This document shows, piece after piece, positions 15,001 through 18,000 of a stretch of DNA of 18,561 nucleotides. Source of the stretch: a virus (lineage: Duplodnaviria; Heunggongvirae; Uroviricota; Caudoviricetes); IMG/VR virus record IMGVR_UViG_2671180846_000018; one strand, 5' to 3'. The position numbers are program-made. Every line of letters starts with the position of its first letter. The first letter of the stretch is position 1.

Positions 15001-18000
15001 AGTTGATTATTGAAAATCAAAAGTCATTTAAACAATAATGATACCCAGCAAGAGATTTCTTATTTTAACTCATAGATCAGACAGTCAACGATTTCTAAAC
15101 CATTTACCATAGAATTAGAAACGCGAACTTTACCATCGTTGACTCTAGCAAATCCTTTTAACATTTTATAAACAAAAGCTGAATCCCCCTTAGCCTCAAT
15201 TGCTTCTAATGGTATCGGCTTATACTTTTTTGATATGCTATTTCTATTTATCTCACTGATTTTTCTATATATTTCTGCCGGCCCACGTTCTGAGAAGTCA
15301 CTGATAACTAAAATATATCTCCAAGATAGATCTGGGTAATAAAACCACATTGCAGCATCAATAGTTAAATTCTGTAACTTGAGTTTTTTTAACAAAAATT
15401 GACCTGAGAATTCCATATCTTTTGTCAACTCTCTGCCGATTACCAGTGTGCTTTTACCCATTTCAAAACTCCAGAATTTTGGTCACCTACAGCATCAAAC
15501 AATTGTTCGGCCATAGCTTTACTTATGTTATTGTCGTATCTAAATTGCTCGCTCCAGTCTTTAACGACCGACCAGTTAATCTCCAACGAAACATCATTTT
15601 TTGCGTCAGCAATCAAAATTTGATGTAAGTTGGCAATTTTGAGAAGTTGCGACAAATCATGAGTATATGAATCATTTACGACTTTTTTGTTTGGAAACTC
15701 ATGTTGTAAAAATGACTTGGCAATACAGGCCTTCAATGCACATTCAACTGCATACCCACAAAGATAATATGCACCATGAAAAAAGCCATGATCAAGCAAG
15801 CATTTGGCCTCATTAAGCCTAGTGTCAGATAATGCTTCAAGGTCGTTTTTATTCATACAATTATAACTTGAATTATCCTAATTTTTATGATTATACCCTT
15901 ATCAGGTATGATGTAGGAACTGAAAACAATATTGGATATCATTTTCGGTATTTCTCTGCAAATTCCAGCCCACAGGATCTCGGTGTACAATCTGTCGCTG
16001 ATCGCGCAAATTTAGGGTCAATCACTTCATTTTTTGCATCAAACCCTCACTAACATCGAACGATTATAGTACAAGTAGTGTTCTTGACTTCTCATTAAAC
16101 CGTCAGCATTCAATTAATTACAAAATACTAGCGGCATTTCTCTCCCGCAACTTTATTACAGCCGTTCAGAACGTAAATGCGTCAATACTCGACTCCACTT
16201 ATCATCCTGCCACGGCCGGAATTTTACATGTGCCGTTTCTCTGGCAAGGATTGCCTGTGCCTTATTGAGTATCCGGGGATATTCTTGTTCGATTGAAGTG
16301 AAGCGACCGGCTTCGCGGTGTTCTGCTACCTGAAGAAGCGGAGTGACGTTTTGGCAAGCGGTTAACATTGTGTCACTTGCCCGCCATAACCAAGCAAGTG
16401 TGCAAAGTTCGTTATCAGTGAATTGTTTTGTGATTGGGGATTGTTGAATTTCTCGATCGAGAATATCCAGCACCCAGCGGCGGAATTCTTTGGCCACAGG
16501 AGTGCGGGCGAACATGGCGATCAGATGGGCGCCACGGAGGGAGAAAATGCGAGTCTTCTTACGATAATTTCCTGAGGTCGTTGATTCGACGACCTGAGAC
16601 ATTCCGTCAGTAAACTCATCAATATTTTTGTTGTAGATGTCGGTTACTGCTTTGGTGCTGGCATATTTTAATGCTGCCGCCAATTCTTTGCTGGTAAACC
16701 AGATCTGGTTGTTGTGATTTATAGGAGTGAATTTTACATCGCGGAATGCGAGCTGAGTGACCATAGCGATAATCTCGTTTTGAATTTGAGCTATCACCAC
16801 CGACGACGCCAATCGACTGGTGGTGGACTGTGCAAGGTTGGCGTAACCGGTCAAAACGAAATCCGGCGCTTCCGAAGAAGCCCTCACACAGCCCACCATA
16901 ATTTTTGTGTAGACGTGCACTGCGCATAAAAAAACCGCGAACGCGGTTATGCGTCGTTTTGATGTCCGGGACGCCAATCCCGTGTGCCGATTTTGCGGCA
17001 ACGCACAGAATATAGCGCCGGATAAATAATGTCGTCAACCCTTGCATATGGGGGGCGCGATGATCACTACTACCACCATAATCGCTCCAACTGTTGCAAC
17101 TACTTTAGGCTAAGACATCACGATTTCCATATCACCTTTAGCCGCCAGACAAACAGAGACTCCCTGTTCTTGGCTGCCAAAAACACCGAATGCAAAAAAT
17201 CGCAGGTGTATTTCTGCATCTGTGGAGGGAGAAGAGAGTTTGGATTGTATGTGCGCATAAACGTCCCCGTTTAGCGCAGAAGTCACCGTAGTTGTTCATA
17301 TTCTGATGACATGATAATTTCCTATTGAATAGAAAAAATTAACACGACTCATTCTTATGACTGGAAAAAGCAATCATGCTAATAATCATTGTTGTTCCAG
17401 TTCCAAATGCAGCGAAATAATCACCAATATTTTTTCTACCGGTTTCGACTTTGATGCTATATTCTGCTAACACCTAACTAACACTACGTTTCACACAGCA
17501 ATTACATGGAAATAACATGACTATCAAAGCGACTGACATAGAGATTCTTCATCGTTATGCTGAAGGGGTAATGGAACGTTCTAACCATCATGCAAAAAAT
17601 GTTGGTGCAGCCGCTCTTACATTGCTAGGAGGTGTTATCTGGAAAGCCCTGCCCGGATCAATCGAGATAAGAACGTATAACGGAAGTCTTGCAAATATGG
17701 TGTGGTGGCAAAGCGAAAGAACATTAAAAAATTATGCAATCTCATACAACCATAATTCATGTGAAATTGAAATGAGAGATGAATCAGTCAAAGGTGCTGT
17801 ATTATTTAGCATTTCCAACGAAACCACTCCAGAAAAAATATTATCACAGCTTTCTGAGCTTTAATTAAAGGCGGTGCTAACACCGCCCATACCATTACTC
17901 CACATCTTACGCAACTTGATAATTATGCTCTATTAAATACCCACAATATTTCATCAATGCATGGGTCAGCTACAAAATGTTTACCGTGGTAATTCCTGTT

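Follow-up and report, generated by a model that had tools for sequence, protein, structure and literature searches.

The open reading frame and its surroundings

The stretch of DNA considered in the current study, hereafter the window, comprises 18,561 nucleotides of a member of the Caudoviricetes (IMG/VR record IMGVR_UViG_2671180846_000018) and represents a DLP12-type lambdoid prophage integrated at argU, beside tRNA-Arg and intD, in Escherichia coli of the enterohaemorrhagic (EHEC) type. We detected in it an open reading frame (ORF) on the plus strand (17517-17864) that starts with ATG, encodes a protein of 115 amino acids and is convergent with the lambda-type replication gene P; the coordinates and the length of the product confirm those of a preliminary description of this DNA. 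We regard the identity and architecture of this gene, a moron of the VCH_CASS14 family in the slot of the lambdoid gene ren, as practically certain.

No in-frame start further upstream of the ORF is possible. The product (12.9 kDa, isoelectric point (pI) 6.1) has the sequence of RefSeq WP_000152742.1, a "hypothetical protein". It belongs to the VCH_CASS14 family and is cytoplasmic, with neither a signal peptide nor a membrane segment on inspection by eye. In an identical prophage annotated in RefSeq, the ORF is the sole plus-strand coding sequence from P to the Q antiterminator. The preliminary description had called it the only sizeable plus-strand gene, which is right for this interval but not for the whole window, since an ompC/nmpC-like gene and an iss/bor-like gene are found farther left on the same strand.

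The ribosome-binding site proposed in the preliminary description could be recognized in the sequence as GGAA at 17508-17511 (plus strand), with the GGA core (17508-17510) 6 nucleotides before the ATG. The Citrobacter and Serratia homologs have a GGA(A/T)A motif with the same spacing to the ATG, and the sequence farther upstream is unrelated. A candidate extended -10 element (TGcTATATT, 17455-17463, plus strand), accompanied by a weak -35 element, was found by eye, and immediately downstream of it an alignment between E. coli and Citrobacter becomes possible. On the 3' side, a G+C-rich hairpin with a 7-bp stem (GGCGGTG-CTAA-CACCGCC, 17870-17887) lies 5 nucleotides past the stop codon, with folding energies of -13.2 kcal/mol on the plus strand (z -4.1) and -19.8 kcal/mol on the minus strand (z -4.6). 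Possible roles of this hairpin are to delimit the moron transcript on its 3' side and/or to terminate, in a tR2-like manner, leftward transcripts reading through from P. The Citrobacter homolog is followed at the same place by a canonical terminator, a hairpin with a T6 tract, of unrelated sequence.

The intergenic DNA around the ORF was also inspected for other elements. The hairpin was the only palindrome 3' of the ORF in a check for attC sites, and an origin of the local insert as an integron cassette found no support, with GTTRRRY core sites not enriched and none present at the 3' flank, and with a prophage as its context. An exact direct repeat of 10 nucleotides, TGCTAACACC, is found at 17465-17474, 43 nucleotides before the ATG, and again at 17875-17884, within the 3' hairpin. 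The two copies could delimit a smaller insertion of older date, but they may be a chance pair, as about 0.3-0.5 such pairs are expected in 851 nucleotides. A hydrophobic ORF of 44 amino acids on the minus strand (17339-17473), which differs by a single in-frame indel of 3 nucleotides in a diverged copy of the region (L156, see below), was discarded as a gene; it shows no relation to the theta-like gene at the corresponding position in Citrobacter, and nothing else supports it.

Membership of a structurally characterized family

The product of the ORF matches Pfam PF18315 (VCH_CASS14, "Integron cassette protein VCH_CASS1 chain") with 71.7 bits against a cut-off of 26.7 (E 5.7e-20), residues 12-104 aligning to positions 2-92 of the 97 in the profile. 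It also matches the crystallized protein 3IMO in the PDB (phmmer E 1.3e-17, residues 3-109), with 34% identity over the whole length. A profile built from 127 family members retrieved 3IMO from the PDB sequences at E 4.3e-51, and nothing besides. Further matches were obtained to PHROG 5959, a group of unknown function (E 1e-80), and in UniRef the exact sequence of the product is already labelled with the VCH_CASS14 domain. No match was found in NCBIfam, nor any relative among the viral protein structures of BFVD at E <= 0.001. The preliminary description had recognized no family for this protein, a view that has to be abandoned: the gene is a prophage-borne member of a known and structurally characterized family.

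The structural homolog 3IMO is Vch_cass14, a cassette protein of the Vibrio cholerae superintegron (Sureshan et al. 2013, PMC3548836). It forms a homodimer, both in the crystal and in size-exclusion chromatography, and contains a deep hydrophobic pocket occupied by a linear aliphatic ligand of approximately 15 angstrom (PMC3548836). The entrance of the pocket is lined by a polar cluster of Tyr14, Arg21 and Asn60 with bound acetate; the same three residues hold the carboxylate-type head of the ligand, and the exposed surface of the sheet is strongly basic (PMC3548836). The fold of the window protein was predicted with confidence as the same two-layer alpha+beta sandwich, with the order beta-alpha-alpha-beta5-alpha. 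Y14, R21 and N60 are all present in it and are invariant or nearly invariant in alignments of 37 and 127 sequences, as are H24-H25, W42, W63, Y73, Y77-N78-H79, E85 and R87.

Besides the homology over the whole length and the Tyr14/Arg21/Asn60 cluster, the window protein shares with 3IMO the HH and YNH motifs, the single domain of 113-115 amino acids and the organization as a mobile unit of one gene. On the other hand, the 3IMO gene resides in an integron, whereas the window gene is an opposite-strand moron of a lambdoid prophage with no attC-like element, and the enterobacterial subfamily is distinguished by an insertion of two residues after beta3 (WWxSExT).

Some members of the family depart from the single-domain plan. 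One protein (P0210) is fused to an N-terminal Clp_N domain (Pfam E 6.5e-12), which is rare, and the subfamily of P0191, P0216 and P0217 has long Lys/Ala/Pro-rich, basic C-terminal tails and the YNH motif altered to YSH or YKY. These fusions were set aside, as a single Clp_N fusion and a few basic tails of low complexity give too little to build on.

An AT-rich module in the place of ren

The ORF is carried by an AT-rich module of 770 bp (17289-18058), delimited both by its composition and by breakpoints in homology. The G+C content of the module is 36.2%, as compared with 49.2% for the whole window, 48.5% for the left flank and 53.7% for P. In megablast searches of 50,697 phage genomes, the homology to phage IdasGreatGrand on the left ended at 17288, and that to the P/ren region of SfI, Stx1a phages and others on the right ended at 18059 of the window, so that both edges of the module coincide with homology breakpoints with other lambdoid phages. 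None of the 153 phage records that share the flanks has the module, and ren or other genes are found in the slot; IdasGreatGrand carries approximately 1.7 kb of leftward genes in the corresponding interval. No RNA family of Rfam was detected within the module.

The immediate right neighbour of the module is the 3' part of P (18069-18561, minus strand; "replication protein P" in RefSeq), which ends at 18069 and runs off the window at the other side. A run of 50 masked or unresolved positions (18273-18322) inside P interrupts its frame in our ORF list. According to the SfI annotation, ren overlaps the end of P, with its start at the P stop codon in SfI and related phages. In the window, a short remnant of ren (18040-18072, minus strand) is found at exactly this point: its ATG overlaps the P stop and the codons ATG-ACG-GGC-AAA-GAA specify MTGKE, the first five residues of SfI Ren, followed by the unrelated RFFVT and a stop codon. 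Only the first 14 nucleotides of ren are left. Considering this remnant together with the breakpoints, we conclude that a foreign module of 770 bp took the place of ren; it recombined in between P and the IsrK/antirepressor module described below, and ren was deleted. The preliminary description had put the ORF in an AT-rich stretch next to P and at the position of ren, and both statements hold, the second one literally.

Lambda Ren is a Rex-exclusion relief protein encoded just after P. The window gene occupies exactly the same genomic slot, in which the first 14 nucleotides of ren persist over the P stop, but its product has no sequence similarity to Ren (BLASTP E 8.7 against SfI Ren) and differs in size, and the gene lies on the opposite strand with putative expression signals of its own. 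It is a replacement of ren, not a variant of it.

A diverged copy of the locus (L156) supports a transfer of the module as a whole. Within the module, L156 differs from the window by 1.3% upstream of the ORF, 4.0% in the ORF and 1.5% downstream, as compared with 14% in the left flank and 8% in P. The module is thus closer than its flanks, and therefore has been exchanged between lambdoid backbones as a unit. The better conservation of the non-coding sequences flanking the ORF (1.3-1.5%) than of the ORF itself (4.0%) suggests that regulatory elements or another small product are present in the module, or that the ORF allele was exchanged. The two ORFs differ by 8 synonymous and 6 non-synonymous changes, all within codons 44-115.

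A conserved gene that stands alone

In comparisons of the ORF with seven homologs, the proportion of non-synonymous differences (pN) ranged from 0.15 to 0.25 and that of synonymous differences (pS), which are saturated, from 0.73 to 0.89. Judging from these substitution patterns, the ORF is under strong purifying selection, and its reading frame is conserved in the homologs to which the preliminary description had pointed as a check.

DNA similarity between E. coli, Citrobacter and Serratia extends from approximately 12 nucleotides (possibly approximately 55) before the ATG to the stop codon. A tblastn search of the window with the genes that flank the Citrobacter copies revealed no counterpart. 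The ORF and its ribosome-binding site are the only parts common to the three genera, and therefore the gene is to be seen as a single-gene unit. In the Citrobacter-type prophages, the gene is likewise solitary and runs opposite to the early genes around it, which encode among others a theta-like subunit, DinI and a dNTP pyrophosphohydrolase, and the opposite-strand placement was encountered in four further enterobacterial prophage contexts. In V. cholerae, the gene is a superintegron cassette whose neighbours differ between two strains. These results show that the ORF is a genuine protein-coding, single-gene moron.

Lambdoid morons are independently transcribed extra genes, such as bor and lom of lambda, rexAB/sieB and gp15 of HK97. 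The window gene resembles them in that it is absent at this place in close relatives, deviates in G+C content, is compact with a 3' hairpin and has an orientation independent of the operon. It differs from them in that its promoter and terminator are candidates only, and in that its product belongs to none of the known types of membrane or exclusion proteins. The moron-like architecture suggested in the preliminary description, with foreign composition, opposite strand and a single-gene insert at the ren slot, is in line with these results.

Distribution and genomic neighbours of the family

A profile search of 1.84 billion representative proteins yielded 621 clusters (50% identity) at E <= 0.001, nearly all of single-domain proteins with 110-120 amino acids. 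In its taxonomic spread, the family belongs mostly to environmental Alphaproteobacteria. Every one of the 724 clusters in a collection at 90% identity is annotated as "hypothetical" or named by the domain only. The family is scarce in viruses and plasmids: none of the 50,697 sequenced phage genomes contains a homolog, and homologs were found in 23 of 2.9 million IMG/VR contigs, 14 of the 23 being the prophage of the window itself, and in 3 of 72,556 plasmid records. Among the viral contigs, two of 206 kb and 86 kb (L071 and L072, 5454-6342) hold a distant member with 36% identity on low-GC, jumbo-phage-like DNA, directly downstream of a protein of 158 amino acids that resembles NADAR/YbiA by eye only. 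The family moves as a lone cassette or island gene.

Of 5426 complete E. coli genomes, 181 (approximately 3%) contain the 781-bp region with the ORF at >=99% identity, always on the chromosome. The strains include O26, O103 and other isolates from cattle and humans, and the gene is annotated as "hypothetical" everywhere. The whole block from 14900 to 18070 is found in 176 of the 181 genomes, again with >=99% identity, and therefore the carriers represent a single prophage lineage.

For a survey of genomic neighbours, 148 loci were collected and dereplicated to 100 lineages. Clustering of the neighbours revealed no partner common to the whole family. The largest cluster, found in 10 lineages, is a protein of approximately 165 amino acids that is translationally coupled downstream (gap of +3 or -4 nucleotides) and is usually followed by a Fic-domain protein, giving a recurrent operon of VCH_CASS14, the ~165-amino acid protein and Fic in 8-10 alphaproteobacterial lineages. 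In the members of this block (L020, L023, L025, L102, L103, L109 and others; e.g., L025:5247-7587) the genes are co-directional with gaps of 3-50 nucleotides, in the order of a ~190-240-amino acid protein, VCH_CASS14, the ~165-amino acid protein and a Fic protein of 229 amino acids with a degenerate HPFLDGNGH motif. The ~165-amino acid protein has no relative in Pfam, PADLOC or the PDB, and the ~190-240-amino acid protein none in Pfam.

Proteins of defence systems are recurrent among the other neighbours. In Serratia, an AIPR gene lies 35 bp upstream of the family gene. A gene with the SduA_C nuclease domain of Shedu follows directly downstream, with gaps of 1 and 30 nucleotides, in two unrelated metagenomic loci (L099:375-1016 and L131:2413-3603); the protein of L099 has 214 amino acids and is without an N-terminal domain of its own. 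In an integron array (L046), the family gene adjoins a CAP12 TIR-domain effector, and one copy is located 9 nucleotides downstream of ArdC on a conjugative-type element. Immediate neighbours recognized by PADLOC are DruA (E 8e-291), PtuA (Septu), Drt2, AbiU, PDC-M01A, mad2 and type I/II methyltransferases. GmrSD_N, SieB, HEPN_RiboL-PSP, YfbU and the antitoxin modules HigBA, HicB and Phd were also found, and tyrosine recombinases are located downstream in 6 lineages.

Other elements of the window

To the left of the module, an IsrK-type, Hfq-binding small RNA is encoded at 16928-17000 on the minus strand (Rfam RF01394, 64.1 bits against a gathering score of 50, E 4.5e-13), with its own terminator hairpin at 16933-16948. 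The match overlaps a sub-threshold match to the family "a1,b1 targets of C4 antisense RNA" (region 16928-17015, minus strand). Directly downstream is an antirepressor-like gene with Bro-N and P22_AR_C domains (16156-16764, minus strand), an arrangement that we take to resemble the IsrK/AnrP module of Gifsy-1 or the immI module of P1.

A first AT-rich island (15060-15856, minus strand, 35.7% GC) encodes a HEPN-domain protein of 138 amino acids (Pfam E 3e-6), with a weak PADLOC match to the candidate system PDC-M28A (E 1.8e-7), and an overlapping partner of 133 amino acids with no family match. The two genes of the island may form a HEPN-based pair in the nin region with a toxin or defence function. 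The preliminary description had asked whether the ORF co-occurs with this operon in other prophages. The linkage seen is clonal, with the whole block shared by the 176 E. coli genomes noted above, and no HEPN gene was present within 8 kb in the Citrobacter prophages with the gene. The association with the HEPN operon is explained by one prophage lineage.

A possible role in conflict and its alternatives

Based on the family and its contexts, we tentatively propose that the window gene encodes a conflict-related, ligand-binding accessory protein, a reading that is plausible but somewhat less likely than not. A weak promoter of its own would drive the gene, in the direction opposite to the early-right operon, so that it would be expressed in the lysogen rather than in the lytic programme. 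The protein would act as a homodimer binding a small amphipathic ligand in its pocket, and a second conserved patch (W63, N78, E85 and R87) would probably contact a macromolecule. The periodicity of the strands and the published list of pocket residues put this patch on the exposed face of the sheet, which suggests a second, macromolecule-binding surface. The activity would most likely serve conflict between phage and host or among mobile elements, by superinfection exclusion or by modulation of a defence pathway. We propose a conflict role because the family is self-sufficient cargo of one gene (integron cassettes, integrase-linked islands, prophage morons) located beside unrelated defence effectors. 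The functions suggested in the preliminary description (superinfection exclusion, immunity or anti-defence) would agree with these neighbourhoods. Two features make us favour a role on the side of the lysogen over lytic counter-defence: in all prophages examined, the gene and the pR operon converge, and the family belongs essentially to bacteria and not to viruses.

Several observations weigh against this proposal. The gene in E. coli is confined to one lineage (>=99% identity) that is often disrupted by insertion sequences, and its retention there is uninformative on selection. H-NS typically targets AT-rich islands in E. coli, and the gene may therefore be silent. A two-hexamer promoter scan found weak sigma-70-like sites only (17357-17386 and 17490-17518), at a frequency no higher than in shuffled sequence, so the promoter evidence for the ORF is weak. 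The downstream hairpin of the preliminary description is present and stable, but it lacks a U-tract on the plus strand and was absent from the list of the terminator scan. It is not a textbook terminator for the ORF, because the sole T-rich tail (TTTAATTAAA) is on the minus strand. Approximately 10% of the immediate neighbours in the 100 dereplicated loci are recognized defence proteins, a raw share, uncorrected for background, that we take as suggestive; the majority of the neighbours lack an annotation or are housekeeping genes that border the islands. None of the 5027 models of PADLOC-DB 2.0 matches the product (E <= 1). The ligand of 3IMO was never identified and no function was assigned to the protein (PMC3548836), so membership of VCH_CASS14 gives a fold and a pocket, not a mechanism. 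Finally, no functional paper was found for PF18315, VCH_CASS14 or WP_000152742, the structure paper of 2013 being the only one.

Among the alternatives, an anti-defence factor is unlikely but deserves consideration. The dimer would sequester an immune signal as a sponge or block an immune effector, in the manner of Tad1, Tad2 and Acb2 or of phage-borne antitoxin mimics, and the copies beside AIPR, Shedu, TIR, HEPN and Fic would be cognate regulators or inhibitors and the source of the phage copy. By analogy only, the window protein is comparable to the sponges as the product of a single gene with a small, soluble, oligomeric fold and a conserved ligand pocket. The tight co-directional linkage to effectors of unrelated types also fits, as do the copy behind ArdC and the one beside the NADAR-like protein (by eye only) on the viral contig of 206 kb. 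However, no sequence or structural relationship to the sponges was found, nor any viral structural relative at E <= 0.001, and the pocket of 3IMO is hydrophobic with an aliphatic, not nucleotide-like, ligand. The gene runs against the early lytic operon, the usual site of counter-defence genes, and the family is overwhelmingly bacterial, being absent from the phage genomes searched and nearly so from IMG/VR, where most of the positive contigs are the same prophage. That the gene is cargo unrelated to conflict appears rather unlikely. In that case the protein would carry or bind a fatty-acid-like or other hydrophobic metabolite, or be a weak enzyme, as a niche-adaptive gene that hitch-hiked into the ren slot. 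The aliphatic ligand of 3IMO, with its carboxylate-type head at Arg21/Tyr14/Asn60, would be explained, as would the ordinary metabolic genes among many neighbours and the spread mainly in environmental Alphaproteobacteria. Yet defence, toxin-antitoxin and recombinase genes appear conspicuously frequent in the neighbourhood, and the fact that prophages of two enterobacterial genera acquired the gene independently, each time as a moron on the opposite strand, suggests a benefit linked to lysogeny.

It is doubtful, and fairly improbable in our view, that the gene is an orphaned sensor or regulatory subunit of an adjacent effector (Fic with the ~165-amino acid protein, Shedu, AIPR or others), the solitary prophage copy being inert or engaged in cross-talk with a chromosomal partner. 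The translational coupling (gaps of -4 to +3 nucleotides) with the block of the ~165-amino acid protein and Fic in approximately 10% of the lineages points in this direction, together with the 1-nucleotide gap to a protein consisting of SduA_C only, the two separate conserved surfaces (pocket and exposed sheet face) that the sequences imply, and the rare fusion to the adaptor-type Clp_N domain. Such a subunit is nevertheless hard to reconcile with a family that has no common partner, its largest neighbour cluster covering 10 of 100 lineages, and the lone integron cassettes with changing neighbours and the lone prophage copies in E. coli and Citrobacter speak for autonomy. A nucleic-acid or replication protein that substitutes for Ren or modulates O/P-dependent replication is very improbable. 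The slot beside O and P, the replication-related genes near the Citrobacter copies, the strongly basic sheet surface of 3IMO and the basic tails of one subfamily would agree with it, but there is no similarity to Ren, the window protein (pI 6.1) and most of the family (111 of 127 members below pI 7) are acidic, gene and replication operon lie on opposite strands, and most contexts of the family are unconnected with replication. That the ORF is spurious can be practically dismissed: its location in an AT-rich spacer, the weak promoter and terminator signals and the "hypothetical" annotation would be expected of a chance frame, but such a frame would not match Pfam, PDB and PHROG entries, have 724 clusters of homologs, experience strong purifying selection or have a confidently predicted fold identical to that of a crystal structure.

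Returning to the conflict-related accessory protein, a wider version of this proposal would extend to the whole family. VCH_CASS14 proteins would then be unrecognized stand-alone conflict factors, in which a dimer of 113-115-amino acid subunits with a gated pocket captures a lipid-like or other small signal and triggers or quenches effectors of the Shedu, AIPR, TIR, HEPN or Fic type, and the prophage copy would confer on EHEC lysogens an exclusion or immune modulation of a new type. We consider this generalization unlikely as it stands.

If no such function existed, the locus would be a case of ordinary lambdoid mosaicism, in which ren was exchanged for a foreign module of one gene. By its membership of a family whose structure is solved and whose ligand pocket is defined, an anonymous ORF becomes a testable object. 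Overall, a function could follow for a structural-genomics orphan, a cassette-sized family that is repeatedly parked by defence genes.

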